IMG/VR virus record: IMGVR_UViG_3300009514_000017
Location: 1-64,000 of that record
Strand: one strand, 5' to 3'
DNA from: a virus
DNA: 64,000 bases
Part shown: in pieces, positions 23,900-59,681 of the stretch
Layout: each line of letters begins with the position of its first letter
How positions within the stretch are numbered: the first letter of the stretch is position 1
The notes under the pieces: model-generated
Seen by the model: only the letters and a program-made list of their open reading frames with translations
Databases searched by the model: none
Told to the model about the DNA's origin: nothing
Program-made: the position numbers and the translations under genes

Positions 23900-23932
23900 T
23901 CGTTGACCCTCCAGTCTGCTGACCAATATACT
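23900..23932 (+). promoter_or_regulatory. sigma70-like promoter TCG-TTGACC-N18-TATACT
   Basis: -35 at 23903-23908, -10 at 23927-23932; same architecture at 53617 and 59649. Confidence 0.65.
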
Positions 23933-23958
23933 GCCACCCGCTTAGAAAGGGTGAAAGC

Positions 23959-26916
23959 GTGACCATCAGACTGTCAAATACGAGGCCCGGAGACAACGAG
24001 TATTCCGTTCCTCCAGAGGGTCAGTTCCGTATGACCCTAGCTTCCAAGCGAGAGTTGGTCAACGTCAGGACATCCAAGATTTTGGTTGGTAGTACGGCCA
24101 TAGACTTCGATGGATCTACACTACCAGAGGTTGACGCTAACGTAACGACTGGAGGTGTGACTGTCGAGGTCAAGACTCCAGAGAGAAAGACCCCAGTCAA
24201 CGCAAACACTACTCGAGCAATAGTCTCATCCAATCTCAGGATTACGAAGAACACGAACGATGATGCAGATACCGGAATTTATGAGGTCACTGCTCCGATT
24301 TCCGAGTTCGAGGATGGAGAGTCTGGGGTAGGAGCAGCTCTGTACGTCAAGTTCCAGGTCAACCCATCCACCTGGAATACGTTCAGTCCAGGCTGGTGCA
24401 GCCTGACAGACATGGCATGTCCATTCTTCCAACTCGAGTATGGTCCCTTGAACACAGCTCTGTCTGTATTGTTCCGGGACAATAGCGGAGATGGATCTCT
24501 TGTAGTAGGGGGCCCAGAGCAGACGGCAGGTTCTGCTAGACCAGATCAAGCCGAGGTCACAGACTCGTCGTTTCCTTGGTTCACACTCGCCGACGGAACG
24601 ACGGTTCACTTGTGGATTGTCTTCGACTTAGGTGAGTCTAGTGCTCGGGTCTATGCGGCAGAGGATGGGCAGGATTTCATCCTCATGTCGACTCACGACA
24701 TCGGTGACCTGTCTGTATTTCCTGTTGCTGGTCAGCATCAGAACTTTCGTGCTGCTGCTTCCAACGTAGTTCGCGCCTACTTCGGAAATGCTGGTAGGGT
24801 CGGAGACGTTCTCGACATCGAGGATTGGTTCCTCCTACCGTACACGTTTTTCCCAGTCAGCATTACGAACCAGTCCCTATCTGGGACTGGAACGGACATA
24901 ACCGGGAACAGTCCTGTTCAATACAAGCCTCTTGATAGAAAGGAGCCAGACGCAGATCTCGGTGGCTGGTATCCGTTCAAGTCTGGAACTTCGGTAAGGC
25001 CAGTTCCAAAGTTCGTGAACAAGGGTGGCTTTGCCAAGAAGCCTCACTACCTGAAAGTCACCAGGGAAGATACGGGCGAGGTAGCTTACGCGAGGAAGAT
25101 AGATCAGTTCGATGAGTCCTTCGGAAGCACCAAGCTCACCACAGGCGCGATGATAGAGATGACTGCCAGGGCAACCATCAGGTCTGCTTATGGCATCTCA
25201 TCAATGATGGGGATCGAGCTGGACGATGGAGCAGATCTGTTCAGGGCCTTGATCTTGGACGATGGACAGTTCTGTTTTCTGATCGACCCTCTCAGACACA
25301 GCCTGGACTCTGGCTACAGCTTGTCTGGAGTAGCTCACCCACTGGAGATTGAGCATACCTACAGGCTGTTGGTGGACAAGCTTCATGATGAGATCTGCCT
25401 GTTCGTTGACGACATCGATACCCCGGAAACGATCTTGCCACTGTCTGCGGCCCCAGCTTTTGGAACCAGTGCAAGAGCTTTGTTTGGTCACATCCTAAAC
25501 GTAAACACGGATTGTGATCTGGAAATCTCGAGAGTGTTTCTGGCTGAGTCGTTCAGGTCGTGGGATGGGAGATTTGGGATTCTCCCTCAGTCACCAGCTC
25601 AAGACTCAAGAACTAGGATGTCTCTGTACTCCCCAGTTGACTGGATGGATGGGGACCAGGACAGCGTTCGCCTAAACGCCACCGGTTCTTATGGTTCAAG
25701 AGTGACCATGAGTAGAATTGACAATGAGTTCTGTTCTGACTCAAACGCCTTTGTAGATTTCCGGATGATGATAGTTAGCCATTCCGGTGCAGACAACGAG
25801 CGAGGGGCTATCGGAACGACTGGAGTCGAAGTAGATATGGGTTTCATCAGCCCAGACCCCACAGTTGCTAATGTACAGAGTGTTAGATTGCTGTTCGTGA
25901 ATGCAGGTGCTTACGGAAGAAAAGCCTGTTTCGCTTTTGAAGACTATACGGATTCAGACTTTACAGAGCAGACCGCAAACGGGAGGAAGTACTCCATAGA
26001 CGTGGACTGGACTGACTTCCACTCCTACAGAATCCTATATAGAACCGGTGTGGCTCTCGAGCTGTACATAGATGACTTCGAGACCCCAGCAATGCAGATA
26101 CTGTGGGGTGTGGGTGGTTTCGGACTGAGCACAGGCTTCGTCTACAACGGTTTGGAGCTTGGCCATATCGATGGTAGCAGGCTGTCAGATAGTGAGTGGA
26201 TGCACATAAGGTGGGGATCTGGCTACGGCGTAGACGTTGGAATGAGACCAGAATTCCCAGCCAGCACTCTGGAAGATTATCTGCTGAATGGTAAGTCTAT
26301 CATCGCCGGTGGAGCCACTGAAACAGCATTGCTATCTTATCAGCTCTCGAGCTCAATTCCAGAAGGCTACTCCATATCTGACAGCGATACTCTTCTTGTG
26401 TCTGTTGATGGTGGCGGAGCCCAGACGGTAACTTTCACTGGAACTGCTGCTAGGCTGTCGAAGACTGGTCTATCTCTAGGGTTCCCGTTGAGTGGAACCT
26501 TGGTCTACTCGATTGATGGAGATAGAAACCAGACGGTGACAATAACGGCGGCTGCTGATTACGCAGACCTGGCCGCACAAGTGGATGCAGGTCTAAGCAA
26601 CGCAACTGCTACTGATAACTCTTCCACTGAGCTACATGTAGACTCAGAAATTCTAGGGAGCACGTCTAGTGTCTCGGTTGTTGATGGTACTCTTCTCTCC
26701 ACCATTTACGCCGCCCCGGATTCGGATTCTGGAACTGGTAACATGCCAAACCTGGATGACGCTTCTGCGGATGAAGTTGCATCTGTAATATCATCCGCTC
26801 TGACTGGGGCTAGTGCTTTGAGACAAAACAGCACCATCATCATCTCAAGTGATACAGGTCTGGGTGGTACAATTGTGGTAACTGGTGGAACTGCTCAGGC
26901 AGCACTGGGGTTCTAG
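23959..26916 (+). CDS. large tail/baseplate-associated structural protein
   Basis: 985 aa, beta-rich; the C-terminus carries the VDGG..TVTF / GGTAQAALGF module also found in other virion proteins here. Confidence 0.65.
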   Translation: MTIRLSNTRPGDNEYSVPPEGQFRMTLASKRELVNVRTSKILVGSTAIDFDGSTLPEVDANVTTGGVTVEVKTPERKTPVNANTTRAIVSSNLRITKNTNDDADTGIYEVTAPISEFEDGESGVGAALYVKFQVNPSTWNTFSPGWCSLTDMACPFFQLEYGPLNTALSVLFRDNSGDGSLVVGGPEQTAGSARPDQAEVTDSSFPWFTLADGTTVHLWIVFDLGESSARVYAAEDGQDFILMSTHDIGDLSVFPVAGQHQNFRAAASNVVRAYFGNAGRVGDVLDIEDWFLLPYTFFPVSITNQSLSGTGTDITGNSPVQYKPLDRKEPDADLGGWYPFKSGTSVRPVPKFVNKGGFAKKPHYLKVTREDTGEVAYARKIDQFDESFGSTKLTTGAMIEMTARATIRSAYGISSMMGIELDDGADLFRALILDDGQFCFLIDPLRHSLDSGYSLSGVAHPLEIEHTYRLLVDKLHDEICLFVDDIDTPETILPLSAAPAFGTSARALFGHILNVNTDCDLEISRVFLAESFRSWDGRFGILPQSPAQDSRTRMSLYSPVDWMDGDQDSVRLNATGSYGSRVTMSRIDNEFCSDSNAFVDFRMMIVSHSGADNERGAIGTTGVEVDMGFISPDPTVANVQSVRLLFVNAGAYGRKACFAFEDYTDSDFTEQTANGRKYSIDVDWTDFHSYRILYRTGVALELYIDDFETPAMQILWGVGGFGLSTGFVYNGLELGHIDGSRLSDSEWMHIRWGSGYGVDVGMRPEFPASTLEDYLLNGKSIIAGGATETALLSYQLSSSIPEGYSISDSDTLLVSVDGGGAQTVTFTGTAARLSKTGLSLGFPLSGTLVYSIDGDRNQTVTITAAADYADLAAQVDAGLSNATATDNSSTELHVDSEILGSTSSVSVVDGTLLSTIYAAPDSDSGTGNMPNLDDASADEVASVISSALTGASALRQNSTIIISSDTGLGGTIVVTGGTAQAALGF

Positions 26917-29900
26917 ATGCCGTCCGTTCCTATTTCAGGTCCAACCCCAGCAACTTCAACCAGGCCAGTTGCCATCGTTGTTGCTACTCCCTTGGCTGCG
27001 ACCATTGGATCTCGGGTTCTACTCAACGGCAAGGCCAGCACGAACGCCGCTGGAACTACTCTCACGTACAAGTGGGAGTTCGTACAACCACTACCCATTG
27101 GGTCCCGGGTTGCCATCCAAGGGTTCATCGAGGTCGAAGACGATTTGTCTGTTGTAGCGTTCACTCCAGACATAGTCGGGGAGTACATTTTCAATCTGGT
27201 GGTAAACGACGGCAATTACGACAGTGATCCGTTCTATCAGCAGATCAGCGTCCGTTCAGTTGTAGTCCCACACGCCAGGGGAATAGTGCCAGATGGGAAA
27301 TTCATCTGGAGCTACTTGAGAGATGTGTGGAAGGAGGTTGAGGGTAGAGACCTGTTCGAGACGTTGTGGTCTACCCTCATCCAGATAGTAGGCTCGGAAG
27401 TTCTAAAGCTCTATCAGGCAGACTTCAACAAGAGCATCCGTGATGTTCAGAGTGAAGTGCAGAAGAGGTGGCTTTCATACGCTCCTCTCCTAGAATTGGA
27501 CACTGATAGCCTTTCGTTCTTTCTGGGGAACGTGTCGCAGGGACGCGATGGAATAACCGAGCCTTACCCGTTTCAATTGAAGGGCATCATAGTTAATGCA
27601 CAGGAGTTCATCCCTGTTGAAGGAACAGCACTACCCTCTGATGTTGGAACCGACCTGACCATCACATTCAGCCTGGATTCTGGTAACGAGGCTGACTACA
27701 GAATATTGAGCTTGAATGGAAGCAAAGATGGTTTTCTGCTTGCCATAAGCTCGTTCTCCGCCCCAACCGCAGACGAGTCCTACGCATCAAAGACGTTCTA
27801 CTTCAGTGACAGATCGACGAGTTGGGCTGCAACGACTGCGGGTCCGTACTCCGTCGGCAACTACATTAGGTTCGTTTCCGGAGACAACAAGGGCATCTAC
27901 AGAATCATGACGGTGTCTGGAACAGACATCACTGTCGATAAGCCACCACCGTTTTTGTCGGACGCAGGCAATCCATCTTCCGGTCCAGTTTATAACCCGG
28001 TGGAGTTCACACTACCTAGGGTTCAGACATCGACTGTGACCAGCTTGGCTATTCCATACATTGGTAGGGAGACAGAGTTTGACTCATTCAGGGTTGGACG
28101 ACTGTTGACGTTTGGTGGCAAGGATGTGACTGCTCCAGGTGGTACACTACGAGAGGCAGGTCAGCAGACATACGAGCCATCTAGTGCTCGAGTCGATTAT
28201 CGTCAGGGGGTAGCAGTAGCCAAGTTTACCATTCCAGACACCAACCAGGCACCCTCTGGATTGTTCGGGCAAGACTGGAGGTTGTCCAACACCCTAATAT
28301 CTACCTCTCAGAACTTTGACGAGCTGGGTGTCAACCCGGGCGACTTGTTGACGTTCAAGGTTCATCTGGTTGGATCTGATGTCGCAGTAGACCTAAAAGC
28401 TCTTGTTGTTGGGGTTCGAAAGAAGAAGCTGGCTTTCGAGTTTACTAGCTCAAATCTCACTCCAGGTTCAGCCGTCACGGAGAATGTGGTCAGAACTCTG
28501 GTAGTCGGTTTTGGAATCGATGGTTATTCACTAGCTGATGACGGGACGGATGTTTACGAGGACGATGCGCTGGACTTCAAGAACAGCTACGAGTCCATGT
28601 TATTCCAAACCTCATACCACAACGTGCTGCTAGATCAGGACAGTACGTTGACTATCAATGGAAAAGGCTACTCGTTCATTCCGTTCTCCATTCTCCGTCA
28701 TCAGACTGTAGGGGTGGACGTAGACCTGAAGTCTGTTCCGATGTTGCAGGAGTTCATCAAGCCTCCTCAGACAGTGACCAGGAGTGGTGTCACCTATCAA
28801 GTCCACAAGGGAGTCGAGTATGCTCTGGAAAGAGCCCCTAGACCATACGTCGAGAACTCCGACTTCACGATAGGTGATGAGAACGCCTACAGCGGTAAAT
28901 TCATATTCGAGTCCGGCTCCAACTACGTCGAAGGTGAGGGGATCGATTTTATAGAGTTGGGAATCAAGGCTGGTGATTCGTTCGAGATAGTTACCCCTCT
29001 GTCCTTGGCGGCGGATTACACAATCTCGGCTGTGGTGTCACAGGACAAGATCAAGCTCAGTCTCCCAGTTCCTCTGTTCCCAGTGGACCCAGTAGTAGAG
29101 GCGAACGTCGTAATCACTAGGCGAAGGTCTGGTAGATTCATGCGGTTCGTTCCCGGCTTGTTCTCAGTAGCTGGCCCAATCGCACCTAAGAGACTGTGGG
29201 CAGAGGTCTCCTTCGTAGACAATAACACCGTCATAGAAGGCAACTTCGGTCTGGCGGTTGGTCTGAAGATAGATGACTTGGAGAATGTAACCAAAGACAT
29301 TACCTATCGGCAGGCAGTGGCAGGATTGATGCGTGCCTATTCCAACTCACCGTCTATAGATAACGTAAGGACTGGTCTAGAGATCTTGCTCGGTATCCCG
29401 TTCGCTGAACATCGCGGAATCATTCGCTCCATAAACCCTGACTATAGAAGAGATTCCTATGGGAGAGTTACCAAGGGGCAGATGATAGTGGAGGATGTGG
29501 ATAGCAGTAGTGACCCTCTTGGTACTTTCCGTGTCTACGTCTACCCATTGGATGAAGAGTCAGAACTGTCTGGGCTCGAGGTCAATCCAGTCACCGATCT
29601 ACCCTATGTCGTTGGAGACATCGTTGAGGCGTTTGCAACCTTGGCAGTTGGTATTGGAATTCAGGATTACCTCACCCATCCACTGGATGACACGTTCTCT
29701 GCCGCCAAGAGATTGCAGCAGTTTCACTCGGTCAGAGTGTTAATCAACGACAACATCTACTCGTCAGGAGAGTACGACCTGGTATCGAAGTTCTTGCGCA
29801 ACATCACACCGTCGTACATCAAGTATGCACTAACCGTGATGTCAGACTTCGACGAGGATGTTCAGGCTCTTGATGCTCTCCACATGAACATCAGTGGGGA

Positions 29901-31107
29901 GATCATAGTAGACAACGCTTCGTTCGGCATCGCTCCTGCTCTGATGCTCAACAACAGGATATTCCTGTCGAGCGCTGGTCTGATCTTCATAGGTGATGGT
30001 GTGTTCAGGGCCATGAGATATGGTCTTGCGACCGTTGCAGCTACAGGAGATAGCAAGTTCACAGTGTCCGAGGGAGGGATTCTAAACCCCAGAGCGACTG
30101 AGGACTTTGAGGCTCCACTGGTTCGTGCTGGAGATACAGTCTGGATCAGGAATGGGATGGCAGGTGGTAAGTACACTGTTGATTCTGGAATCACCGACAC
30201 AGAGATCCCTGTCAGTGATGGTCCGTCTGTTGGGTTTGCTCAAGAGTCCGGTCTTGGATACGTCGTTCTTAGAGCAGTAAATCCAGAACTAGTTACTGGA
30301 GTAACCGCTGATATCTCTACTGGTGTAGATGAGATCTCCATCTCCGGAGGGCAACTCAGGGTTCATGGAGTTGGTCCAGGAGATTGGCTGATCGTTGACT
30401 CTGCCTCTGTTGGTGCCAGGAGATTTACCATCCTGGATGTCATCAACTCCGGTAGCTCTTGGGACACAGTCAAAGTCACGCCAACACCAACCGGTACCGC
30501 TACCCCAGCTGCTAGGATCTGGCGACCATCTCTTATGACCAAGGTAGAGGAGACGTTCCAGATTACTGGGAGTGGTGGTACTATCTACACTCCGGATGAT
30601 ACATGGTGGATCGGTCTCGCAGATCCTGGAGACGAAATAGAATTGGATGATGACACCCAGAGTAGATTCCTGCTTGGTGATCCATTGGATGATTACTCTG
30701 TCAGCTCGATCCCAGCTGGTGCAGCAGATTATAAACTGGTCAAGAAGAACAGACCTGGAGCATTCGTCTCTCTGGATCACTTGCGATATGATCCGATGGA
30801 GCAGATTGATATAGACTTGGTTGAAGATCAGACTCTTGCTTCTTGCTCTGTTGGCAGTACAGATGTGACTCTCCAGGAGGAGAGAACCACAGCACCACCA
30901 TCAGGACCAAGTGCAGTGAACCCAGCAACCATGAACGTCAAGGTAGGCGATTATCTGATATTGACTGGTGGTGCAGCTGGAGCCATGAACATAGGCTACG
31001 GTAATGGGGTATTTCCTATCGTGGCTTTTGATGCGACCAAGGTTGTGATCAGTCAGGGCCTACCTGACACTGAGTCAGTGGCTTGGGCCATAAGACGGAG
31101 ACTGTAA
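26917..31107 (+). CDS. baseplate wedge-like protein with N-terminal PKD/Ig domain
   Basis: LNGKAS...LTYKWEF...FTPDIVGEYIFNLVVNDG (PKD-like); YRQAVAGLMRAYSNSPSIDNVRTGLEILLG resembles gpI/gp7-like wedge proteins. Confidence 0.65.
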   Translation: MPSVPISGPTPATSTRPVAIVVATPLAATIGSRVLLNGKASTNAAGTTLTYKWEFVQPLPIGSRVAIQGFIEVEDDLSVVAFTPDIVGEYIFNLVVNDGNYDSDPFYQQISVRSVVVPHARGIVPDGKFIWSYLRDVWKEVEGRDLFETLWSTLIQIVGSEVLKLYQADFNKSIRDVQSEVQKRWLSYAPLLELDTDSLSFFLGNVSQGRDGITEPYPFQLKGIIVNAQEFIPVEGTALPSDVGTDLTITFSLDSGNEADYRILSLNGSKDGFLLAISSFSAPTADESYASKTFYFSDRSTSWAATTAGPYSVGNYIRFVSGDNKGIYRIMTVSGTDITVDKPPPFLSDAGNPSSGPVYNPVEFTLPRVQTSTVTSLAIPYIGRETEFDSFRVGRLLTFGGKDVTAPGGTLREAGQQTYEPSSARVDYRQGVAVAKFTIPDTNQAPSGLFGQDWRLSNTLISTSQNFDELGVNPGDLLTFKVHLVGSDVAVDLKALVVGVRKKKLAFEFTSSNLTPGSAVTENVVRTLVVGFGIDGYSLADDGTDVYEDDALDFKNSYESMLFQTSYHNVLLDQDSTLTINGKGYSFIPFSILRHQTVGVDVDLKSVPMLQEFIKPPQTVTRSGVTYQVHKGVEYALERAPRPYVENSDFTIGDENAYSGKFIFESGSNYVEGEGIDFIELGIKAGDSFEIVTPLSLAADYTISAVVSQDKIKLSLPVPLFPVDPVVEANVVITRRRSGRFMRFVPGLFSVAGPIAPKRLWAEVSFVDNNTVIEGNFGLAVGLKIDDLENVTKDITYRQAVAGLMRAYSNSPSIDNVRTGLEILLGIPFAEHRGIIRSINPDYRRDSYGRVTKGQMIVEDVDSSSDPLGTFRVYVYPLDEESELSGLEVNPVTDLPYVVGDIVEAFATLAVGIGIQDYLTHPLDDTFSAAKRLQQFHSVRVLINDNIYSSGEYDLVSKFLRNITPSYIKYALTVMSDFDEDVQALDALHMNISGEIIVDNASFGIAPALMLNNRIFLSSAGLIFIGDGVFRAMRYGLATVAATGDSKFTVSEGGILNPRATEDFEAPLVRAGDTVWIRNGMAGGKYTVDSGITDTEIPVSDGPSVGFAQESGLGYVVLRAVNPELVTGVTADISTGVDEISISGGQLRVHGVGPGDWLIVDSASVGARRFTILDVINSGSSWDTVKVTPTPTGTATPAARIWRPSLMTKVEETFQITGSGGTIYTPDDTWWIGLADPGDEIELDDDTQSRFLLGDPLDDYSVSSIPAGAADYKLVKKNRPGAFVSLDHLRYDPMEQIDIDLVEDQTLASCSVGSTDVTLQEERTTAPPSGPSAVNPATMNVKVGDYLILTGGAAGAMNIGYGNGVFPIVAFDATKVVISQGLPDTESVAWAIRRRL

Positions 31108-31772
31108 TGGGATTTTCCGAGTCGGTGATAGTGTCAGACAGTGGATTTGCAAGACTAAGAAGAAAGATCGGTGGAGCGATAGCCGGCGTAGACTTCGACG
31201 ACCGTAGCGTCATTGAGGTCACTGGTTGGGTTCGAGCAGTCCTGCGAGAGAGGGGAAAGATAGTTCCCGGTTCTCGAAGAGAGGGAAAGAACATCTGGAC
31301 CAACTACGGTAGAGAGCTCATCACCCAACTCATCGCCTACAAGGATACAGGTCTAGTCAAGCATCGAGACGACAGGTTGTTCTACATAGGAGTGGGGACG
31401 GGATCACAGGTAGAGGATGTAGGAGTCACCTCGTTGATAACGCCGGTAGACTACAATGCCTCCTCCGAGTTTCTGGCGCCGCTCGATCTCTCTCTTGGAG
31501 TTTCACCTTCGTTTCCTCTGACACCATCGAAGACAACTGTCAGGTTTCACAAGATCTTTGCGGAGAACGAGATTACTGTGTCGTCATCTCCAATCAACAT
31601 TACGGAGATGGGGCTGTTCACGAACGGTGAGCAGACTGCTTTCACCGTCGGTGGAAGAGACATCACGACAGCCAACGGTGGTCTACAAACACCCTGTGCC
31701 TACAGAGCATTCGAGCCTATAGGGAAGAGTGACTCCCTCGAGCTGGAAGTAAGCTGGGACATTCGTCTCTAG
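31107..31772 (+). CDS. baseplate/tail-fibre attachment protein
   Basis: NIWTNYGRELITQLI..YIGVGTG..ITEMGLF..F.PIGK...LEVSWDIRL pattern; TAATG coupling. Confidence 0.65.
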   Translation: MGFSESVIVSDSGFARLRRKIGGAIAGVDFDDRSVIEVTGWVRAVLRERGKIVPGSRREGKNIWTNYGRELITQLIAYKDTGLVKHRDDRLFYIGVGTGSQVEDVGVTSLITPVDYNASSEFLAPLDLSLGVSPSFPLTPSKTTVRFHKIFAENEITVSSSPINITEMGLFTNGEQTAFTVGGRDITTANGGLQTPCAYRAFEPIGKSDSLELEVSWDIRL

Positions 31773-31781
31773 GAGTCGGCA

Positions 31782-49248: not shown

Positions 49249-49256
49249 GTTCTCTC

Positions 49257-51059: not shown

Positions 51060-51521
51060 TCAACCTCTCGTTCCCACCCTCGGTGGTAGGGTGAGACCAG
51101 CGTTAACCGCAGATCTCATCTTCTTATCCTCGAAATACTGGATGAGATTGACGGCCAACTTCATCTGGTTCTCAGAGCTGAGACTAGTCGCCCACTGCGC
51201 AGCGACCGGAGCTATCTGTACAACCTCGTCATCTATGAATGCCAGGCTCATAGTGACAGCAGTCTCTATCATGCCCTCCGGACGCATCTGCCTAAGTATT
51301 GAGAACCTGATGGGGTTCTTCAGATCGATGGCCTGACCAGCGAGTGAAGCCGAACGCTCCACTTGCATAACCTCTCCTATCAAGAAATCACTCCCATTGA
51401 AGTACGCGATTATAACTCGGCTGAAGTTGCAACCGTAGTCGCAGCTGAGAGTTTCAATTAGCTCTTTAACCCTCCTCATCTCTGAGATCTTGTTCTGATA
51501 GTCTTCTGAGCTCATCGTCAT
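51060..51521 (-). CDS. hypothetical protein
   Basis: On the operon strand between the helicase and UDG; start uncertain. Confidence 0.6.
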   Translation of the reverse strand: MTMSSEDYQNKISEMRRVKELIETLSCDYGCNFSRVIIAYFNGSDFLIGEVMQVERSASLAGQAIDLKNPIRFSILRQMRPEGMIETAVTMSLAFIDDEVVQIAPVAAQWATSLSSENQMKLAVNLIQYFEDKKMRSAVNAGLTLPPRVGTRG

Positions 51522-52935
51522 ACAATCCTTGTAGTTCTGGGGGTAGTGTTTGAGGTTGTATAGAAGGATTCACTTGGTTGAATGTGTACCCCCAATGCTT
51601 CAGATCTCTTCTGACTGACTGACACATACGTTTCAAGGTAGGCATGGTCCAGTCTTCGAAGATTACGAAGATGGGGTTGGGTTTGCCAGGCAGGAATCTC
51701 TGTATCCTGCCCATTGACTGCTGAAGAGACGTCTTGGCTTTGAATGGTGTCAACCAGAACAACAGATCTAGCTCGTCATCATCTACGCCTTGAGATCCTA
51801 GTCTCGAGATGGCAAAGCACACTCGACTGTTCCGAAGCACGTCTGTTCTCTCATGCTTCGGAGTTTCCTGAATGATGATCCCAGACTCCGGGAATATGGC
51901 GTGCATCAATTTCAACTGCGCTTTGGAGTGAGATAGGCAGAGAACCTTCCTGCCCTGATCCAACGCTGTCTTGATGTGCCAATAGCGGTAGATGTTGCTG
52001 GTTAAGTCCACCCCTAGTGCGCTTCGGACGAGTGAGATGTTTCTCGTTGCTCCGATCAGACCGACGTTCGGATCCAACATGACTGGGGTGCGCTGGAAGA
52101 AGATGTCTGGAATTAGATCTTGAGTCAGGTCCGTGTAGAACGGGAGACCGATGTTGCTGGTATAGATTGGATCTAGTCCATCTTCTCTCTTGACTGTTGC
52201 TGTTAGCCCAATTCGGTTTCCAAAGAACGGTGGTGCGGTCAGGCTGAACTTCGGAGCACCAATCTGGTGAACTTCATCGTAGACGATCAGTCCGTAGTAG
52301 CGGAACATCTCTTCTGGAACTTCCCCCTTTTCTATCTTCTGCCAGAGCGTGGTGACCAAAGCTATGACTAAGGGTTTTTGCCACTCGAACTTCTTCCCAC
52401 TGATGATCCCGACACGACCCTTGAAGTTCAACCCTGGATCTTGCTCTCTCCCCTCGGTGTCGTCACCATAGATCGCACGCTCCCATTGGTCCATGATCCC
52501 CCCATCAGGAACAACGACTAGGGTTGGGGCTCCAACCTGTGCTATTTTCTTCAGTGCTAACTTAGTTTTGCCTTTCCCACAAGCCAGATTGAAGATGCCG
52601 TTGTCGTGAGTAGCTAGTGCCTGCCACGCCTTCTCCTGATCTTCGTTTCGAGGGATAACAAGATCTTGGAACTCGACTTTTTGGAATGTAGGACGTAGAT
52701 CTACAAACTCGAAATCGTATTTGGGGTAGTCAGCAACTGATACGAATTCTCTAGGAGTGATAATGTGGTGCTCGGATTCCTCCCAGAGATGTATTACTAT
52801 CTGTCCATCAGGAGTTGGGACCGAGAACTCGAGCGCAGACTTCACCCAGTGAGGTCTGATGTGCCTCTTTGGTAGCCACAATCTATTGGAGATGTAGGCT
52901 TTATCAGGGTCCTTGCGGTAGAACTCCAGATTCAT
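51466..52935 (-). CDS. superfamily 2 DNA helicase (UvsW/XPB-like)
   Basis: LACGKGKT, DEVH, GLTAT, QSMGRIQR. Confidence 0.9.
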   Translation of the reverse strand: MNLEFYRKDPDKAYISNRLWLPKRHIRPHWVKSALEFSVPTPDGQIVIHLWEESEHHIITPREFVSVADYPKYDFEFVDLRPTFQKVEFQDLVIPRNEDQEKAWQALATHDNGIFNLACGKGKTKLALKKIAQVGAPTLVVVPDGGIMDQWERAIYGDDTEGREQDPGLNFKGRVGIISGKKFEWQKPLVIALVTTLWQKIEKGEVPEEMFRYYGLIVYDEVHQIGAPKFSLTAPPFFGNRIGLTATVKREDGLDPIYTSNIGLPFYTDLTQDLIPDIFFQRTPVMLDPNVGLIGATRNISLVRSALGVDLTSNIYRYWHIKTALDQGRKVLCLSHSKAQLKLMHAIFPESGIIIQETPKHERTDVLRNSRVCFAISRLGSQGVDDDELDLLFWLTPFKAKTSLQQSMGRIQRFLPGKPNPIFVIFEDWTMPTLKRMCQSVRRDLKHWGYTFNQVNPSIQPQTLPPELQGLYDDELRRLSEQDLRDEEG

Positions 52936-52970
52936 TGAACCTCCAACACTCCCCCCCGGAGTGTCGGACT

Positions 52971-53534
52971 CTACTTCTTGGGGATGACAACTGCTGGAAA
53001 CAGGGTCGCCTGCCTGAATGCTAGCAGGGCTTGTTCACAGATGGCTTCTCCAACTCTCAGGGCGATGTTCTTAGAAACCCTAGCCATGAACGTCTCACCC
53101 TGAAACTGCGGCCGGAAGGGTGGAGGAACAGAATAGATGGCATGAAACATCGGATCTTGTACCGACCCGTAAATCCCGATGCCTCCACCGTATGGAGGCT
53201 GGACTCCGGGCATCGCACCGAAGTTCTGAGTTGGAACCGGCTGTAGGCGGTTCGGAATCTGGACCGGGACCATCTGGCCATACTGCTGCTGTGGCGCTAC
53301 AGGAGGCGCTCTGTATGGTGCAGGTGGAGCGTACAGAGGTAGCCTCCGTTGCTGAGGAGGCTGTGGAGCTATGGGAGATGGTGCGGGTCGAAATGCCTGT
53401 GATTGGTACATGGATTCCTGTACCTTCGCGCGGCATTCCGAGTTTACGTCACAACTCTCACACACTCGGGAATCATTCTCGTATGATCCCCAACACTGTG
53501 GTCTTTCAGCGGTTTGGTACTTCCAGTTCGGCAT
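52971..53534 (-). CDS. Cys4 plus Pro/Gln-rich protein, first gene of the replication block
   Basis: ATG at 53534 after AAAGGAG; CWG..CESC...C followed by P/Q/Y-rich low complexity. Confidence 0.7.
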   Translation of the reverse strand: MPNWKYQTAERPQCWGSYENDSRVCESCDVNSECRAKVQESMYQSQAFRPAPSPIAPQPPQQRRLPLYAPPAPYRAPPVAPQQQYGQMVPVQIPNRLQPVPTQNFGAMPGVQPPYGGGIGIYGSVQDPMFHAIYSVPPPFRPQFQGETFMARVSKNIALRVGEAICEQALLAFRQATLFPAVVIPKK

Positions 53535-53564
53535 GACTCTCCTTTCGGTTGCTAATCTGCCCAC

Positions 53565-53575
53565 TCCTTATACCC
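53565..53575 (-). promoter_or_regulatory. candidate phage-specific promoter element GGGTATAAGGA
   Basis: About 30 nt upstream of the first - strand gene; a similar GGGCATAAGAG sits at the other divergence point (59622-59632). Confidence 0.4.
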
Positions 53576-53616
53576 TCGAACTGAGCAGTCTTGTTCGTCG
53601 GTTTTCCCATGTAGCG

Positions 53617-53649
53617 TCGTTGACTGTAGACTATCCAGCTGCCTACACT
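53617..53649 (+). promoter_or_regulatory. sigma70-like promoter TCG-TTGACT-N18-TACACT
   Basis: -35 at 53620-53625, -10 at 53644-53649, 12 nt before the ATG at 53662. Confidence 0.65.
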
Positions 53650-53661
53650 CGGACCTGATGG

Positions 53662-54795
53662 ATGGCTCATGTCCTGGAGATCAAGATGAAAACTGCCGGT
53701 GTTGTGTTCGACTTCTACGATGACCCTTCCGGAGAGATTCTGAAGACGGCTTTCCCTACTCAGGAAGCACTACCAGGTTTGATCAAGACGGCGCATATCC
53801 TCAACGATATGGAGAGGAAGGTTCTTAGAGACGAAGCTTACGCGCTCGTGTTTGAAAACGATGGAGTTACTCTTCGCAAGTTTGCCTGTATAGACCCAGG
53901 AAACACCCTGATGTCAGCTGTCTATTTTGAGAAGACGGCTTACAAGCTTCCAGAGGAGCTTAGAGAAGAGGCTCGGACCAAGATAGCTTCGAGGCTGAAG
54001 GAGTTCTTTCCGCCAGATCCACTGGACAAGCTGGCAGTTCATCTTGGGATGTCAAAGAAGCGCGACCCAAGGAAGATGAAGGACGACAACTCTGGCCAGA
54101 AAGATTGGGAGGATAGGACAAATATGGTTCAGGGGTTCGTTGAGGGAGATGATTCTCCTGGTGCAGCTCAGACCAAGACTTCTATGCCGGTAGCATACGA
54201 TGAGGTTAAGGCAGCGGTTCAGTATTTCAATGATCTGTGGCCAGAGATGTCACCGCTACAGAGGCATGAGTTCGCAGAGAAGACTGCATCTCGAGCTGAT
54301 GAGCTAGGCATCGAGGTTTCTGACAGGATGCGTAGGTATGGGTCTACATCTTACGCAGAAGATGTAGACGATCACCTGACGTCCCGCGCAGCCCATGCTC
54401 CTGTATACAAGGAGGTGTATGCCTCCTTGAAGGAGAAGAGGGCCAGTCTGGAGCCAGAGGAGTTTGCAGTTCTGCTTCAGACGGCTGACGACTCCGCAGA
54501 CCTAGTTCGGTTCTACGGCGGTGTTATTCAAGACCCGTACTTCTCGACCTTTGGATACGTTGACAAGCTGGCATCTTGGTCATGGACTGGCCCGACCGGG
54601 GACCATGTGAACTCCGAACAGTTGGATCGTCTGGCGCGCAATGCCAGGCCGCTGCTGAAGAAGCACTTCAGTGACGAAATGGTAGATGAGTTTTGTAAGA
54701 GCCCGGTCGAGATCTTCGAGTCTCTTCCAGATGACATGAAGATCATCTTGTCCAGGTTGGGGAGTGACGAGTTCACCAACTTCGGTGAGAACTGA
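53662..54795 (+). CDS. putative head/scaffold-type protein with repeated K-x-A motifs
   Basis: MKTAG, IKTAH, EKTAY, TKIAS, DKLAV, EKTAS, EKRAS, DKLAS; upstream of portal. Confidence 0.65.
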   Translation: MAHVLEIKMKTAGVVFDFYDDPSGEILKTAFPTQEALPGLIKTAHILNDMERKVLRDEAYALVFENDGVTLRKFACIDPGNTLMSAVYFEKTAYKLPEELREEARTKIASRLKEFFPPDPLDKLAVHLGMSKKRDPRKMKDDNSGQKDWEDRTNMVQGFVEGDDSPGAAQTKTSMPVAYDEVKAAVQYFNDLWPEMSPLQRHEFAEKTASRADELGIEVSDRMRRYGSTSYAEDVDDHLTSRAAHAPVYKEVYASLKEKRASLEPEEFAVLLQTADDSADLVRFYGGVIQDPYFSTFGYVDKLASWSWTGPTGDHVNSEQLDRLARNARPLLKKHFSDEMVDEFCKSPVEIFESLPDDMKIILSRLGSDEFTNFGEN

Positions 54796-54796
54796 T

Positions 54797-55030
54797 ATGG
54801 AGACTGTATCTCTCCACTCTTTTGCAGATGAGCTTCAGCAGATCTTGGAGAAGGATGCGGGACTCAAGGATTTTTTCATCCGAAAGGTTGCACCTGAGTC
54901 CAGCAAGAGGTTAGCTAGAACAAAAGTCGTATCAAACATCACTGGAGCTTTTCCTAGATCAGTCAAGCCGGTTAAACCGATAGACATGGGTGATACGTGG
55001 TTGGCAAAAGCTGGACTTCGACCTGCGTAG
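54797..55030 (+). CDS. small protein with SFADEL..EKDAG motif
   Basis: ATG at 54797, 1 nt after the previous stop; METVSLHSFADELQQILEKDAG. Confidence 0.65.
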   Translation: METVSLHSFADELQQILEKDAGLKDFFIRKVAPESSKRLARTKVVSNITGAFPRSVKPVKPIDMGDTWLAKAGLRPA

Positions 55031-55037
55031 GTAGTCT

Positions 55038-55970
55038 ATGAACCAGCCAGAGATCGAATTCTACAAGCGCTTGACTGAATTCGTTCCGACTGCTCCTACT
55101 GAAGGCAGTCCTGTAGAGGAACGTTTCAAGGCTGTTCCAGATTACAAGATCCCAGTTAGCCCTAAGAACCTCTTCACTCATCAGGAAATCCACCCCATCG
55201 TTCTAGACCTATCTCTACTAAAGGCTTTCGGTGAGGAGTGGTACTACTGGGAAGTTCCGACTCTGTGGAAGTCCATCCACGACGAGTTCAAGTCCAAGGT
55301 GTCGGAGTCGAACAGAGCCAAGATCAACGCTGTAAGAACTGCAAGAATCACCACCCTACCGTGGGATAGCTGGCACGTTTTCGAGAATGTGGTACTAGCA
55401 CTAGATGGATTTGTTCCACGGTGGGACATCCTACAGAAAGTAGATCTTGAGTCACTGTTCGTAGGAGTGGACATCCTGGAGCAGATCAGACCTGAGGACT
55501 ATTCGGAAGATGTCCGCAACTACATAGCTGCTGTCTTCTTGGATGATGATGTCTTCTTCACCCCTCCACCACTAGAGTTTTCACAGGCAGAAGTCTCGCA
55601 GCCCTATTACCTTTGCAAGGATTGTGGAAATGAGGAGTGGGCGCTACATCACGATGGCATCTGCTCCGTGTGCTCTGGTAGATACGATCCAGAGAACGGT
55701 TTGTCGATGCGGCCTTCCCAAGAAGCCATAGACAAGAAGCTCGGGCAGAACACCGTGTTACGATACAAGTTCGACCCTGGGCCTGAGCAGAGAGTCTGGG
55801 ATCTAGTGGCCAGGTCCAAGAATGAGCAGTCGATTTTGAAGGTGGCTGGTCCAGCAGAGATAGGTGTGTCAAAGCTGCTGGATGCTAGAGACCTCATGAA
55901 CATCAGGCGCAGACAGCTCAAGAACCAGCTGACCGCTCTCAAGTCTTGGCTGAACTCGAGGTCTTCATGA
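55038..55970 (+). CDS. hypothetical protein with Zn ribbon
   Basis: CKDCG...CSVCSG. Confidence 0.7.
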   Translation: MNQPEIEFYKRLTEFVPTAPTEGSPVEERFKAVPDYKIPVSPKNLFTHQEIHPIVLDLSLLKAFGEEWYYWEVPTLWKSIHDEFKSKVSESNRAKINAVRTARITTLPWDSWHVFENVVLALDGFVPRWDILQKVDLESLFVGVDILEQIRPEDYSEDVRNYIAAVFLDDDVFFTPPPLEFSQAEVSQPYYLCKDCGNEEWALHHDGICSVCSGRYDPENGLSMRPSQEAIDKKLGQNTVLRYKFDPGPEQRVWDLVARSKNEQSILKVAGPAEIGVSKLLDARDLMNIRRRQLKNQLTALKSWLNSRSS

Positions 55971-56503
55971 TTGATTATTCAGCCTTCACTGATGAGCTGG
56001 AGAAGATTGGTGGAGTAGGAACCTTTCTTCAGAAACAGATCAAAAACGTTGGCAACACGATTAATGACTTTGCTAATCCCATAAAATCCATGAAGGCTGG
56101 ATGGGAGTCTGGTGCTGCCGGTAGATCGTTTGGTGGATGGGGCGGTAAGCTACTGACAGACAAAAATAAGCCGTCGTTCTGGCGTCATCTACCTGTAGGA
56201 CCCAAGGCTCAGATAACAGGCTTTACTGCACTTGAAGCTCCAGGCGCCCTCGCCAAAGAAGACCCTAGTGGCGAGGGGCGATCTCGTCTGCGTCGTGTAT
56301 CTGGAACCCTTGGTGGGACCGGAGGTTTTTTGGTCGGTGGTAGACATGGACTCCTTGGCTCTCTGGTTGGTGGAGCCATTGGCCAGAAGATGTTGAGTGG
56401 GTCTGTAGGATTAGGGGAGAGCACTGTAGAAGCTGTCAAGCAACTCAAACGTCAGAGAAAGTTTAATGCATTGAATACAACGCAGACCCCCGTGGGGCCG
56501 TAA
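55967..56503 (+). CDS. glycine-zipper protein with AFTDELEKIG motif (putative ejection/membrane-channel protein)
   Basis: ATGA overlap; GTLGGTGGFLVGG..GLLGSLVGGAIG. Confidence 0.65.
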   Translation: MIDYSAFTDELEKIGGVGTFLQKQIKNVGNTINDFANPIKSMKAGWESGAAGRSFGGWGGKLLTDKNKPSFWRHLPVGPKAQITGFTALEAPGALAKEDPSGEGRSRLRRVSGTLGGTGGFLVGGRHGLLGSLVGGAIGQKMLSGSVGLGESTVEAVKQLKRQRKFNALNTTQTPVGP

Positions 56504-58509
56504 TGTCGTCAGATCTAGACTTCTACAACTCCCTGTCTGGCGTATCCAGATTCTCTGGTGTTCGTGGTCGGCTCTCGCAAGGTGGGTCGTTTCCAGCTCG
56601 CTATCCATCCCCATTCTTCGATCTCGGTCATACTTGGCTACCACACTCGATTGGCAAGCTGCATCAGTGGTGCCGCTACTATTACCTAGTCAATCCACTG
56701 ATCAATGCCGTCATTCACAAGATGGCGGAATATCCAATCACTGAGATTGTCGTCAACGAGGTAAACAAGACCACCAAGGAAAAGTGGGAGCACATTCTAG
56801 GACAGCATCTTCGTATTCGTGCGTTCCAGGTAGAAGCTGGCCTCGACTACTTCACTTACGGGATCTGCATTATCACGATGCACTTCCCATTCGAGAAGTA
56901 TCTCGCTTGCACGAACTGCAAGTTCGAGGACAAGGCCAGCAACCTCAAGTACAAGTGGCGCAACCTGAACTACATCCTTCGTTGTCCCAAGTGTGACCAC
57001 GAGGGGCCAACCAAGGTTCGAGACCAGTACCTGAAGGACTTCCGTCGAATCAGGTTGATGAGATGGAATCCAGAGTACGTCTACATAGAGCAGGGGTTTG
57101 CTGGCGCGGAGCCCATCTACACTTTTATGGTTCCGAAGGGTCTCAAAAACGAGATCATGATGGGCAAGACCCGCGTTCTCAACACGGTTCCAGATATCTA
57201 CATTGAAGCGTTGAAGCGCAACAGGAATATAGCGTTCGCTCCAGAGAACATGTTCGTGATGAAGCGGCCAATCATCTCTCAGAGAGAGACGGGTTGGGGT
57301 ATGCCTCTCATCCTTCCTGTTCTGAAGGACGCTTTCTACCTTCAGATCTTGCGCAAGTCTCAGGAAGCTATAGCTTCTGAGCATATCGTTCCACTTCGTG
57401 TTCTGTTCCCTCAGGCAGGAAGCGGAACGAGCGATCCATATACCTCAATCCCAATTGAGTCTTGGAGGTCCCGTATAGAGCGTGAGATCACCAAGTGGAA
57501 GTACGACCCAAACTACATTCCTGTTCTTCCTCTACCTATTGGGTCTCAGTCCATTGGTGGAGATCAGAAAGCTTTGAATCTGCACCAGGAGATCAGCCTC
57601 TGGTCTGAGCAGATCGTTGCAGGAATGGGAGTGCCGAGAGAGTTCGTGTTCGGCGGCCTTACATTCTCTGGCTCCAACGTGTCGATGAGGATGTTGGAGA
57701 ACGCTTTCATCAACTACCGTATCGACCAAGACAACCTCTTGAATGAGTTCATCATCAGGAGAGTTGCAGACTACATGGGTTGGCCATCGGTGCGCGTATC
57801 TATGCGCAAGTTCAAGATGGCAGACGATCTACAGAGGATGAGCTTCCAGTTCCAGCTCAACCAGGCAATGAAGATCTCAGACGAGTCTCTGTTGAAGGAA
57901 TGCGACCACGATCCAGTAGTTGAGAAGGAGCGCAAGGAGCGTGAGGTTGGAGCTCAACTCGAGTACCAGCGCAAGATGCAGCTATCACAGGCTGAGACTC
58001 AGGGTCAGATGTTGCTTGTTCAGTCTCGCTATCAGGCTGCTGCCCAAAGCATGTTGGCTCCGGCTATGCCTGTGCAGCCTGGAGCTCAACAGGGTGCAGC
58101 ACAGCTCGGTGGCCAGCAGGGTGAGATGGTTTCAGGAGACCAACTTGGAATTCCTGGAGTTCCTGGTGACGTTTCTGTCTCTCCAGAGAATGCTCAACAG
58201 CAGCCAGTTGAAGGAGTTCCGACTGAAGCTCAGAGTCCTCTCAGCATGAACACACAGGGTGCTGGGATAGACATTAGGTACGTTGCTAAGAGGGTACTGG
58301 CTCAAATCCAGAAGCTGTATGCCCAAGATCCACAGCAGGCGAACATGAAGCTTGAGGAGATCAGGGCATCCAATCCACAGCTATATAGTCTTCTCATCCA
58401 GATGGCTAACAGTAGGGTTGGCTCTCAAACCGATCCACTAAATCCGGTTCAGTCTCCGCAGCCACAGGTGAAGCCACCTCGTAGCCCCAAGTCTCCAGCG
58501 GCTGCGTGA
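56503..58509 (+). CDS. portal protein with Zn-ribbon insertion and Q/P-rich C-terminus
   Basis: YYLVNPLINAVIHKMAEYP; GWGMPLI; IVAGMGVPREFVFGG...SNV; size and architecture fit large-phage portals. Confidence 0.75.
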   Translation: MSSDLDFYNSLSGVSRFSGVRGRLSQGGSFPARYPSPFFDLGHTWLPHSIGKLHQWCRYYYLVNPLINAVIHKMAEYPITEIVVNEVNKTTKEKWEHILGQHLRIRAFQVEAGLDYFTYGICIITMHFPFEKYLACTNCKFEDKASNLKYKWRNLNYILRCPKCDHEGPTKVRDQYLKDFRRIRLMRWNPEYVYIEQGFAGAEPIYTFMVPKGLKNEIMMGKTRVLNTVPDIYIEALKRNRNIAFAPENMFVMKRPIISQRETGWGMPLILPVLKDAFYLQILRKSQEAIASEHIVPLRVLFPQAGSGTSDPYTSIPIESWRSRIEREITKWKYDPNYIPVLPLPIGSQSIGGDQKALNLHQEISLWSEQIVAGMGVPREFVFGGLTFSGSNVSMRMLENAFINYRIDQDNLLNEFIIRRVADYMGWPSVRVSMRKFKMADDLQRMSFQFQLNQAMKISDESLLKECDHDPVVEKERKEREVGAQLEYQRKMQLSQAETQGQMLLVQSRYQAAAQSMLAPAMPVQPGAQQGAAQLGGQQGEMVSGDQLGIPGVPGDVSVSPENAQQQPVEGVPTEAQSPLSMNTQGAGIDIRYVAKRVLAQIQKLYAQDPQQANMKLEEIRASNPQLYSLLIQMANSRVGSQTDPLNPVQSPQPQVKPPRSPKSPAAA

Positions 58510-58511
58510 GG

Positions 58512-58742
58512 TCATCTGCCATCTTCAGGAAACCAATCCTGAAATTGGTTTACTATTTCCCAAGTCTCTCTCAAAGTCTCACTAGCTCGGGAGAATGCTT
58601 GTTGTACTTCTTCCGGCGCCTTCTGAAACGACATCTTCATCCACAGATCGTATTGAGTCATCCATAGCGCTCGGATGTCTTCGCAATGGCTTTCTATGTC
58701 GTCGCGATAAACTGGTTCTAGATACGGGTTTATACGCGCCAT
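58512..58742 (-). CDS. hypothetical protein
   Basis: TGATG coupling; convergent with portal. Confidence 0.55.
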   Translation of the reverse strand: MARINPYLEPVYRDDIESHCEDIRALWMTQYDLWMKMSFQKAPEEVQQAFSRASETLRETWEIVNQFQDWFPEDGR

Positions 58743-59191
58743 CAGCCATCATCTCCCAACAGTTTCTCTGAGCAGTCGTAGCACACGGAGTCAATCTCAC
58801 ATCCACATGCCTGACACACTCCGTTGGTCATCTCTTCTAGCTCAGTCATGAATCCATCGTCGACGTTACTGATGATAAACTCACACACGCATTCCGGATG
58901 TAGGTTGACTCTACCCTCGGTTTCATTTGCGTAGTCGACGATAAGATCCCCAGTCTTCTTGTTTCTGAATACTGCACCATGAAACAACTCGACTGCTTCC
59001 TCACCTAATTCAATCTCATTGCTACACCACTGACACTTCATCATCGCCGCTTGTGGAGGTGGTGTAGGTTGGATCTGCTGCTGGTATGATTGTTGGTAAC
59101 TCGGCTGATACGACTGCTGTGGCGGCTGCGGCTGTTGGCTTCCGTACTGTAGGAAGTTAGGGTCGAAGGTAGGCCATTGAGATTTGCTCAT
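58742..59191 (-). CDS. Q/P/Y-rich N-terminus plus Cys-rich Zn-binding protein
   Basis: ATG at 59191 (ATGA overlap); QQSYQPSYQQSYQQQ; CQWC...HPEC; CQAC..CYDC. Confidence 0.65.
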   Translation of the reverse strand: MSKSQWPTFDPNFLQYGSQQPQPPQQSYQPSYQQSYQQQIQPTPPPQAAMMKCQWCSNEIELGEEAVELFHGAVFRNKKTGDLIVDYANETEGRVNLHPECVCEFIISNVDDGFMTELEEMTNGVCQACGCEIDSVCYDCSEKLLGDDG

Positions 59192-59478
59192 CGGATCACC
59201 AATTGTAGAAAGGCACTTTGGCTGCCACACCTAGTGCAGCCATCAAGTCCTGGCGAGTCTGGGTCTGAGTCATCACCGCTGTTAAACATCCCTGGTAGTT
59301 CTCGCAACTCACCTGCTGTTTCTTTCAAGCACCTCAAGCATTCCCATCCAACATGACTCACGTTTTTCAATTCCTCCTGTAGATACATGCATTTGGCACA
59401 GTCAAACGCTGTACACAATCCCCTATCCTCGTTGTCAAGCATTAGCTGGCAGAACGCTATTCGATTGGCATATGGCAT
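59188..59478 (-). CDS. small Cys-rich protein
   Basis: C..CTAFDCAKC; CLRC; CTRC. Confidence 0.6.
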   Translation of the reverse strand: MPYANRIAFCQLMLDNEDRGLCTAFDCAKCMYLQEELKNVSHVGWECLRCLKETAGELRELPGMFNSGDDSDPDSPGLDGCTRCGSQSAFLQLVIR

Positions 59479-59491
59479 TTGGTTTGCCTGT

Positions 59492-59527
59492 CAATTAAAG
59501 GAAGGACGGGATCTACCCGTCCTTCCT
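59492..59527 (-). terminator. intrinsic terminator closing the mini-ORF transcript
   Basis: 12-bp stem aggaaggacggg/cccgtccttcct, followed on the - strand by ttaatt. Confidence 0.6.
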
Positions 59528-59537
59528 GCGGGACTCC

Positions 59538-59585
59538 CTAGAGACCGAGGGAGTCCCACAGCTCGTCGATGGCGTCATCGAACAT
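59538..59585 (-). CDS. 15-aa acidic mini-protein MFDDAIDELWDSLGL
   Basis: Perfect SD (AAAGGAGG) 5 nt upstream of the ATG; flanked by a candidate promoter and terminator; below the ORF-track cutoff. Confidence 0.55.
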   Translation of the reverse strand: MFDDAIDELWDSLGL

Positions 59586-59621
59586 TGACGCCTCCTTTCG
59601 GGGACGTTATGTCCCTCTACT

Positions 59622-59632
59622 CTCTTATGCCC
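59622..59632 (-). promoter_or_regulatory. candidate phage-specific promoter element GGGCATAAGAG
   Basis: Matches the 53565-53575 element; lies upstream of the mini-ORF unit. Confidence 0.4.
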
Positions 59633-59648
59633 TAAAATCGCTGTCTTT

Positions 59649-59681
59649 TCGTTGACCTAATCAGCACCTGACCTGTACTCT
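59649..59681 (+). promoter_or_regulatory. sigma70-like promoter TCG-TTGACC-N18-TACTCT upstream of the RNAP gene
   Basis: -35 at 59652-59657, -10 at 59676-59681. Confidence 0.6.

Follow-up and report, generated by a model that had tools for sequence, protein, structure and literature searches.

The DNA considered here, hereafter the window, is a stretch of 64,000 nucleotides (nt) that corresponds to positions 1–64,000 of the 75,790-bp viral contig IMGVR_UViG_3300009514_000017 from IMG/VR, whose completeness is estimated at ~40% (CheckV). Its genes are divided by strand: those for the portal, tail-like proteins, an RNA polymerase and a sigma factor run rightward (+), and those for DNA polymerase, helicases, nucleotide metabolism and small open reading frames (ORFs) run leftward (−). 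The same division is seen in the relatives of this phage and in Salmonella phage Arash. Here we describe two classes of candidate promoters that follow the division, a rare class A of canonical bacterial form that faces the rightward genes and a class B that faces the leftward genes, and we consider which RNA polymerase may read each of them.

The window was compared with 20 related IMG/VR viral loci, which share 37–59% identity with the N-terminus of its polymerase; several of them are parts of records of 177–209 kb, some with direct terminal repeats. Four relatives that are 93–100% complete (G001, G002, G003, and G005) were taken as whole genomes, and a common gene order links them to the window. 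The cultured relatives, namely Arash and the Vibrio phages D69, D148, and D181, are distant: the Arash beta subunit is 33% identical to that of the window phage, with 98% of the query covered, and a search for near-identical DNA in cultured phage records found none. Likewise, no public sequencing run was listed as containing the DNA of 52500–62499. The mReC/Arash-like phages occur widely, and no virus is known to have a more bacterial-like polymerase than theirs. The window phage shows the features of this group: beta and beta' regions that profiles recognize, homology and synteny, and the word GGNATAAG on the non-virion strand. It can be placed among the RNA polymerase-encoding Caudovirales of Weinheimer and Aylward (PMC7481178). 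That study contains no analysis of promoters, sigma factors, or inteins, and the description of the Arash lineage (PMC10585845) contains none of promoters; the transcription of the mReC/Arash-like phages is described neither in these two papers nor in a 2026 jumbo-phage review.

Class A sites in front of rightward operons

Three class A sites are found in the window, all on the + strand. P_A1 (23900–23932) consists of the trinucleotide TCG, a −35 hexamer TTGACC (23903–23908), an 18-nt spacer, and a −10 hexamer TATACT (23927–23932). P_A2 (53617–53649) has TCG, TTGACT, 18 nt, and TACACT, and P_A3 (59649–59681) has TCG, TTGACC (59652–59657), 18 nt, and TACTCT. The initial annotation had listed these three sites as marking every return to the + strand, and direct reading confirms both the letters and the placement, since each site lies in the gap between the start of a − strand gene and the start of a + strand gene. 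P_A1 heads the operon 23959–36308, encoding proteins of 985, 1396, 229, and 1508 amino acids (aa), the last of which is tailspike-like. P_A2 heads the operon 53686–58509, whose last gene encodes the portal (56503–58509, +; 32% identity to Arash portal gp204, E 5e-85, and a weak PHROG portal match), and P_A3 heads the RNA polymerase operon. The −10 boxes precede the start codons by 26, 36, and 75 nt, respectively, and the start codons carry Shine-Dalgarno-like sequences; homologues place the true start of the first gene after P_A2 at the ATG at 53686, not at 53662. Homologues of the first gene after P_A1 were found solely by direct search of the genomes of relatives, a peptide-pattern search for its relatives having found none.

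The full pattern, TCGTTGACY-N18-TAYWCT, has three exact matches in the whole contig, all on the + strand, and zero on the reverse strand. When up to two mismatches are allowed, there are four matches against 0.68 expected, a number reached in 0 of 100 shuffles. The looser pattern TTGAC-N16-19-TANNNT has six occurrences in the contig, counting both strands, and the class A sites account for three of them. A position weight matrix scan, which the initial annotation had suggested as a check, was run with a matrix trained solely on the orthologous sites of relatives. P_A1, P_A3, and P_A2 scored 21.1, 20.9, and 17.8 bits, well clear of the next match (12.9 bits), and shuffled sequence gave a mean of 0.15 matches of at least 17 bits per contig. 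The housekeeping promoter consensus of bacteria is TTGACA-N17-TATAAT. The −35 hexamers TTGACC, TTGACT, and TTGACC are close to it, the −10 hexamers have the form TAnnnT and agree with TATAAT at 3–4 of six positions, and the 18-nt spacers fall inside the 16–19 nt range.

P_A2 and P_A3 are kept in position in relatives whose proteins are 45–59% identical, and the sequence of the spacer varies. In most of the 20 related loci, the counterpart of P_A3 lies ~75–120 nt before the polymerase start and has the form TTGAC, TTGCC, or TTGGC, then 17–18 nt of unrelated sequence, then TAYNCT. Scored by the consensus of the initial annotation, the best match in the 180 nt before the polymerase gene agrees at 12–15 of 15 positions in ten loci; in five loci (L005, L009, L014, L017, and L024), no other match on either strand of the 7.8-kb locus equals it. 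Orthologues of P_A2, with TTGACC, TTGCCA, or TTGTCA, N18, and TACACT or TAAACT, are present in L027, L028, L030, L031, G001, G002, G003, and G005, and among them the −10 box TACACT is nearly invariant. P_A1 is not conserved: the orthologous gap in the four whole genomes is ~24 nt long and has no motif. This site appears to be an extra copy gained by the window phage in front of its giant tail-fibre-like genes.

When the three window sites are combined with the 20 orthologous sites of relatives, the T-T-G of the −35 box and T-12, A-11, and T-7 are invariant in all 23 sites. A and C predominate at the two positions after T-T-G, 19 sites have a T three bases upstream of the −35 hexamer, and 18 have C at −8. 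The class A consensus can thus be written T-N2-TTGAC-N, 17–18 nt, TA-Y-N-C-T. The spacer measures 18 nt in 20 of the 23 sites and 17 nt in the other three (17/20 and 3/20 among the relatives alone), and because of this conservation the 18-nt spacer is a selected feature rather than an accident. The complete relatives, of ~200 kb, have 2–3 class A sites above 15 bits per genome, all on the + strand. Two strong copies stand before the portal operon and before the fused beta-beta' operon, and a weaker third copy stands before the operon that holds the sigma gene. An enrichment analysis of 6-mers, made de novo in the regions upstream of + strand genes, returned only the reverse complement of class B and no abundant third class.

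Taken together, the class A sites are exact, strand-specific, intergenic, and at the right distance from start codons, and their positions are kept while the spacers drift. For these reasons, we consider that, as far as sequence can tell, the three sites are genuine promoters of the sigma70 family.

The two weaker N18 variants proposed in the initial annotation fared less well, since both are present as written and both score within chance. TAGTCA-N18-TATAGT (1065–1094, +) reaches 5.1 bits. It is the positional orthologue of TTGGCA-N17-TACAGT in G001 and of TTGGCA-N17-TAGTCT in G002, and it may be a degenerate class A site heading the operon of the sigma gene. TCGTCA-N18-TATTCT (7715–7744, +) reaches 9.4 bits, a score that does not support it as a promoter, and lies within an insert (4777–14196) that is absent from relatives.

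Several other observations were made along the rightward blocks. The insert at 4777–14196 (+) adds 9.4 kb to a virion block and contains five genes (168, 736, 68, 1309, and 775 aa); it has no counterpart in the four relatives, where the flanking genes adjoin, and is lineage-specific. A PHROGs search with its five proteins gave no match. In the translations, a peptide F-x-D/N-E-L-x-K-I recurs at the N- or C-termini of many unrelated + strand proteins (for example those at 1094, 1369, 2222, 54764, and 55946, and at 72695–75746 of the contig), and the sigma factor has a variant of it. Where the rightward tail-like operon and the leftward replication operon converge, their ends are separated by a strong GC-rich hairpin (36331–36359), probably a two-way terminator. 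Finally, matches to the class A matrix of at least 13 bits number 6, 2, and 2 in G001, G003, and G005, against 7–16, 3–7, and 3–11 in simple shuffles; the deficit may reflect avoidance of stray host-type promoters, with the reservation that the shuffle ignores coding structure.

Class B sites and their arrangement beside class A

In alignments of the relatives, a conserved CTTATRCC is seen just upstream of the polymerase promoter, and on the − strand this word reads GGYATAAG. It is the core of class B, for which a logo of 38 sites shows CAAaa, N14, and GGNATAAG, followed by weaker downstream positions. In other words, class B also has a two-box layout, with boxes that are non-canonical. Two members lie in the window. 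P_B1 (53567–53594, −) has the box GGTATAAG (53574–53567) and an upstream CAAGA element, and heads a 17-kb leftward replication operon (53534–36363) encoding a helicase, a DNA polymerase, and others. P_B2 (59624–59651, −) has the box GGCATAAG (59631–59624) and an upstream CGAAAAG element (59651–59645), and heads a 15-aa mini-ORF and small leftward genes (59478–58512). Each leftward operon of the replication type begins with a class B promoter, and the class is found throughout the lineage. At internal points of the replication operon we found no class B promoter, the one-mismatch matches there all lying inside coding sequence.

In the four complete relatives, gaps between genes make up 4–6% of the genomes, and the fractions of GGNATAAG matches that fall in them are 13/24, 12/25, 7/25, and 4/15, which is about half for G001 and G002 and between a quarter and a third for G005 and G003. 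All of these intergenic matches lie on the − strand and precede a leftward gene, and the reversed word, used as a control, gave 0–3 intergenic matches. No class B promoter was found for any + strand gene, including the polymerase and sigma genes.

Class B reaches beyond the close relatives. In Arash, GGTATAAG stands 27–35 nt before leftward start codons throughout the parts read, and in Vibrio phage D69 a one-letter variant, GTTATAAG, stands likewise before leftward start codons, so the TATAAG core is kept both in Arash (Salmonella host, GC content 53%) and in D69 (GC content 44%). The rightward upstream regions of these two phages show TAAAAT, in the word CTAAAATA(T), and not TAYNCT. This word was seen before virion-side genes at L076, L077, and L078 in Arash and at L079 in D69, and the copy at the portal operon of D69 has TTGTCG 18 nt upstream. 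In these phages, CTAAAATA(T) may take the place of class A, with a −10 box that differs. Across hosts and base compositions (44–63% GC), the leftward class thus stays the same and the rightward class changes, which suggests that class B tracks the phage enzyme and that the + strand promoters do not. These observations point to two forms of polymerase that divide the genome by strand.

At the polymerase locus, the two classes are laid out back to back (59624–59681), the upstream box CGAAAAG of P_B2 abutting the −35 box of P_A3. Because the upstream elements touch, the locus has no room for two polymerases at once. At the portal locus, the class A and class B promoters are ~30 bp further apart. 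We had also considered the conserved TTTCG before TTGAC as a part of class A only, and dropped this idea, since at the polymerase locus the word also serves the divergent class B promoter as its upstream box. Within the same gap, at 59630–59638 (+), CCCTAAAAT directly follows the CTTATGCC box; the junction of the two is also present in two Arash gaps (CTTATACCCTAAAAT) and is not conserved in closer relatives. At P_A1, the −35 box and spacer overlap the ribosome-binding site of a small divergent gene (23618–23899, −; 93 aa, weak zinc-ribbon matches), which is conserved in all relatives and sits between two + strand operons. For this gene we found no promoter, of class B or otherwise, as one-mismatch class B matches occur in coding sequence only.

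The RNA polymerase, its leader, and the sigma factor

The gene after P_A3 encodes a fused beta-beta' RNA polymerase of 2962 aa (59757–68636 of the contig, +; 59757–64000 in the window). Pfam recognizes Rpb2 domains 2, 3, 6, and 7 (E 1e-47 for Rpb2_6), followed by Rpb1 domains 1–5. Two LAGLIDADG inteins (LAGLIDADG_3, Intein_splicing) interrupt it, one in beta and one in beta'; the polymerases of relatives are likewise fused, are free of inteins, and have ~2100 aa. There is one polymerase and one sigma factor per genome. The polymerase is not N4-like, the enzyme being a fused multisubunit beta-beta' of the mReC/Arash-like lineage with a sigma70-family factor; a search for the T7-like polymerase domain PF00940 gave no match in the contig or the four relatives, in a search whose control was uninformative. 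In the rifampicin pocket (window 60657–61256, beta residues ~335–370), Ala and Met occupy the positions equivalent to Escherichia coli H526 and S531, and there is a two-residue insertion, which suggests that the phage beta is insensitive to rifampicin. Because the equivalents of H526 and S531 are missing, rifampicin should separate host-dependent from phage-dependent transcripts.

Between P_A3 and the polymerase gene, the mRNA has a conserved, structured leader (59694–59753, +), with a two-part hairpin H1 (59694–59724), a Shine-Dalgarno-like GGTGAGG (59747–59753), and the ATG at 59757. The loop of H1 contains a GCGC-type word complementary to a segment at ~59736–59740, shortly before the ribosome-binding site. 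RNAalifold gives seven pairs, five of them with compensatory changes. Pairing is kept in 88% of cells against 31–52% in slid controls, covariation is 0.398 against at most 0.14, and both sides are changed in 18 cells against 1–5. Compensatory double changes between loop and downstream segment are seen in L005 (ATGCGTAG/CTACGCAT), L006 (CTGCGG/CCGCAG), L012 (CTGTGC/GCACAG), and L015 (TGGCG/CGCCA). No Rfam family was found in the window or in the polymerase leader. We read this pseudoknot-like leader as a putative control of translation or stability acting on the polymerase mRNA.

The sigma gene (2222–3094, +) is single-copy, lies within a virion block, and encodes a divergent sigma70-family factor of 290 aa. 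The NCBIfam model RpoD/SigA matches regions 2–4 with E 1.8e-11, below the curated cut-offs; RpoS, SigB/F/G models also match, as do RpoS/RpoD chains in the PDB (E 3e-10). Every relative examined has one orthologue in the same virion-side block, 40–50% identical, and the identity to virion-borne gp10 of Arash is 26%. No second sigma or sigma-like protein was found in the four complete or near-complete relatives.

In E. coli sigma70, R584, E585, R588, and Q589 read TTGACA, and W433, W434, Q437, and T440 act at the −10/−12 positions. Alignment to RpoS/RpoD shows that TRERVRQ, in the recognition helix of region 4.2, is replaced by DNSKVSK in the phage factor, and that TYATWWIRQ, in region 2.3/2.4, is replaced by TWVTGRLKN; both replacements are kept among the orthologues. 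From this we infer that the phage sigma probably does not read TTGAC-N18-TAnnnT and is instead the likely natural reader of CAAaa-N14-GGNATAAG. Because the residues that read TTGACA have been replaced, it can be argued that TTGAC is read by a canonical host sigma.

Which polymerase may read which class

From the motif statistics, placement, conservation, strand segregation, and gene identities observed above, we infer which enzyme reads each class and when. The scheme that we prefer, and to which we give about an even chance, is that the phage polymerase and sigma act on class B early and the host holoenzyme acts on class A later. The polymerase and sigma would probably be carried in the particle and injected, and would then read class B to express the early and replication genes. 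Later, the host holoenzyme with its primary sigma would read class A and so supply the components of the virion, among them new polymerase and sigma to be packaged, and the pseudoknot-like leader would then control the polymerase mRNA itself. In virions of Arash, no protein exceeds beta in spectral count, and both beta' and sigma gp10 were detected (PMC10585845); this fits a phage polymerase that works early and a host polymerase that works late. The same order was reported for the crAss-like phage phi14:2, in which the virion polymerase acts early and the host polymerase later (bioRxiv 10.1101/2020.03.07.982082).

Several points weigh against this scheme. By the E. coli consensus, the −10 boxes are weak (3–4 of six positions). 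A generic E. coli-type sigma70 scan of 50000–64000 gave 8 matches against 9.6 expected and recovered P_A2 alone among the class A sites; as no excess was found, "host-like" cannot be taken to mean that sigma70 consensus matches are generally over-represented. The TAYNCT box and the T-N2 extension are common to phages of 51–63% GC, which could equally mean a co-evolving phage factor. Class A precedes exactly the operons of polymerase and sigma, which would fit a T7-like order as well. The 2–4 class A sites must serve about half of a 200-kb genome, so further late promoters may have been missed. Lastly, Arash is distant (33% in beta), has a second sigma, and lacks class A. In addition, some of the 116 proteins listed for its virions may be contaminants.

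Three other explanations have to be weighed against these data. If nothing were injected, the order could be T7-like, with the host reading class A first to make phage polymerase and sigma, which would then read class B. The conserved class A sites directly before the polymerase operon, with weaker ones before the sigma operon, and their canonical, host-type geometry agree with this order, but it would place the portal, tail, and other virion genes ahead of the replication genes. It would also leave the phage enzyme never serving the virion genes, as no class B promoter is found on the + strand, and it sits poorly with polymerase and sigma genes that lie inside virion blocks and with the abundance of both proteins in Arash particles. 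We therefore regard a T7-like order as unlikely. Class A might instead be read by the phage core enzyme, either with the phage sigma, class B being left to another factor, or with a recruited host primary sigma. The phage beta-beta' resembles bacterial enzymes enough for cellular profiles to recognize it, and three features shared across very different GC contents (the T-N2-TTGAC extension, the C at −8, and the fixed 18-nt spacer) do look like co-evolution with a phage component. Against this, the residues of region 4.2 that recognize TTGACA are missing from the phage sigma; TAYNCT and NATAAG are unlikely to share a single sigma as their reader, and no second one was found in the four relatives; and Arash and D69 lack class A but keep class B. 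That the phage core reads class A also seems to us to have a low probability.

It might finally be objected that the sites are not promoters at all, but binding sites of a regulator or similarities that arose by chance or from repeats, and the lack of conservation of the site at 23900 would agree with this. Three exact matches to a 27-bit pattern are far beyond chance, however, and boxes that keep a fixed spacing while the intervening sequence drifts mark a two-box promoter and neither a repeat nor a palindromic operator. All three sites also have a fitting orientation and distance to the start codon. We consider this last explanation very improbable.

With respect to the claims of the initial annotation, the proposal that the structural and RNA polymerase genes use host-like promoters is upheld by the geometry of the sites and by the conserved position of two of them; that the host enzyme reads them belongs to the preferred scheme. 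The proposal of an inverted, N4-like programme stands in its logic, which is plausible, and not in its enzyme, since the phage has a fused beta-beta' with a sigma factor and its other promoter class lacks hairpins of the N4 type. The likeness to N4 lies in a phage polymerase that would act first, in host-type sigma70 promoters for virion genes, and in a virion polymerase gene that would belong to the late genes; late promoters of N4 are read by the host sigma70 RNA polymerase with the help of the N4 single-stranded DNA-binding protein. On the other hand, the virions of N4 carry a giant T7-like polymerase of one subunit that reads DNA hairpin promoters, and the middle genes of N4 are left to a second phage polymerase. 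The window phage has one fused multisubunit beta-beta' with a sigma, a linear two-box promoter of the early type, and no second polymerase that we could find. The class B sites, as candidate early promoters, form a linear two-box motif, and the 38-site logo contains no conserved inverted repeat.

Phage phi14:2 resembles the window phage in having a single-chain two-barrel polymerase encoded among virion genes, and its later genes are served by rifampicin-sensitive host promoters (bioRxiv 10.1101/2020.03.07.982082). It differs in that its gp66 is too divergent for cellular profiles, that there is no sigma, and that the early transcripts have no common upstream motif, whereas the window phage has a clearly bacterial-type enzyme, a sigma, and a sharply defined promoter class. 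Host-type promoters directly upstream of a phage RNA polymerase gene also recall A1–A3 of T7; those lie at the end of the genome that enters first and serve early genes only, whereas here the sites are mid-genome in virion blocks, with one heading the portal operon. Within the mReC/Arash-like lineage, the leftward word GGYATAAG is shared by the window phage, the four relatives, and Arash, with GTTATAAG in D69. Compared with this lineage-wide class B, class A faces the virion genes, is much rarer, has the canonical form, and is absent from Arash and D69.

At the level of the lineage, we tentatively propose, with somewhat less than even confidence, that these ~200-kb phages split their genomes by strand. 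A particle-borne polymerase and sigma would act on GGNATAAG, and the host holoenzyme would act on canonical promoters that serve the polymerase, the sigma, and the portal. The touching promoter pairs would form a switch based on competition between early and late transcription, and the leader would throttle the polymerase mRNA separately. In a lineage whose transcription is undescribed, this would combine the logic of N4 and crAss-like phages with an unrelated enzyme of bacterial type.

The paired promoter classes, one private to the phage and one host-like, separated by strand, amount to a concrete and testable programme, which predicts rifampicin-sensitive transcripts. The promoter pair also supplies templates for the in vitro study of a minimal single-chain polymerase of bacterial type together with its sigma. 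If the programme is true, the host enzyme would be needed to make the virion polymerase and sigma, and the mReC/Arash-like phages would provide a third, independent case of the strategy seen in N4 and the crAss-like phages.

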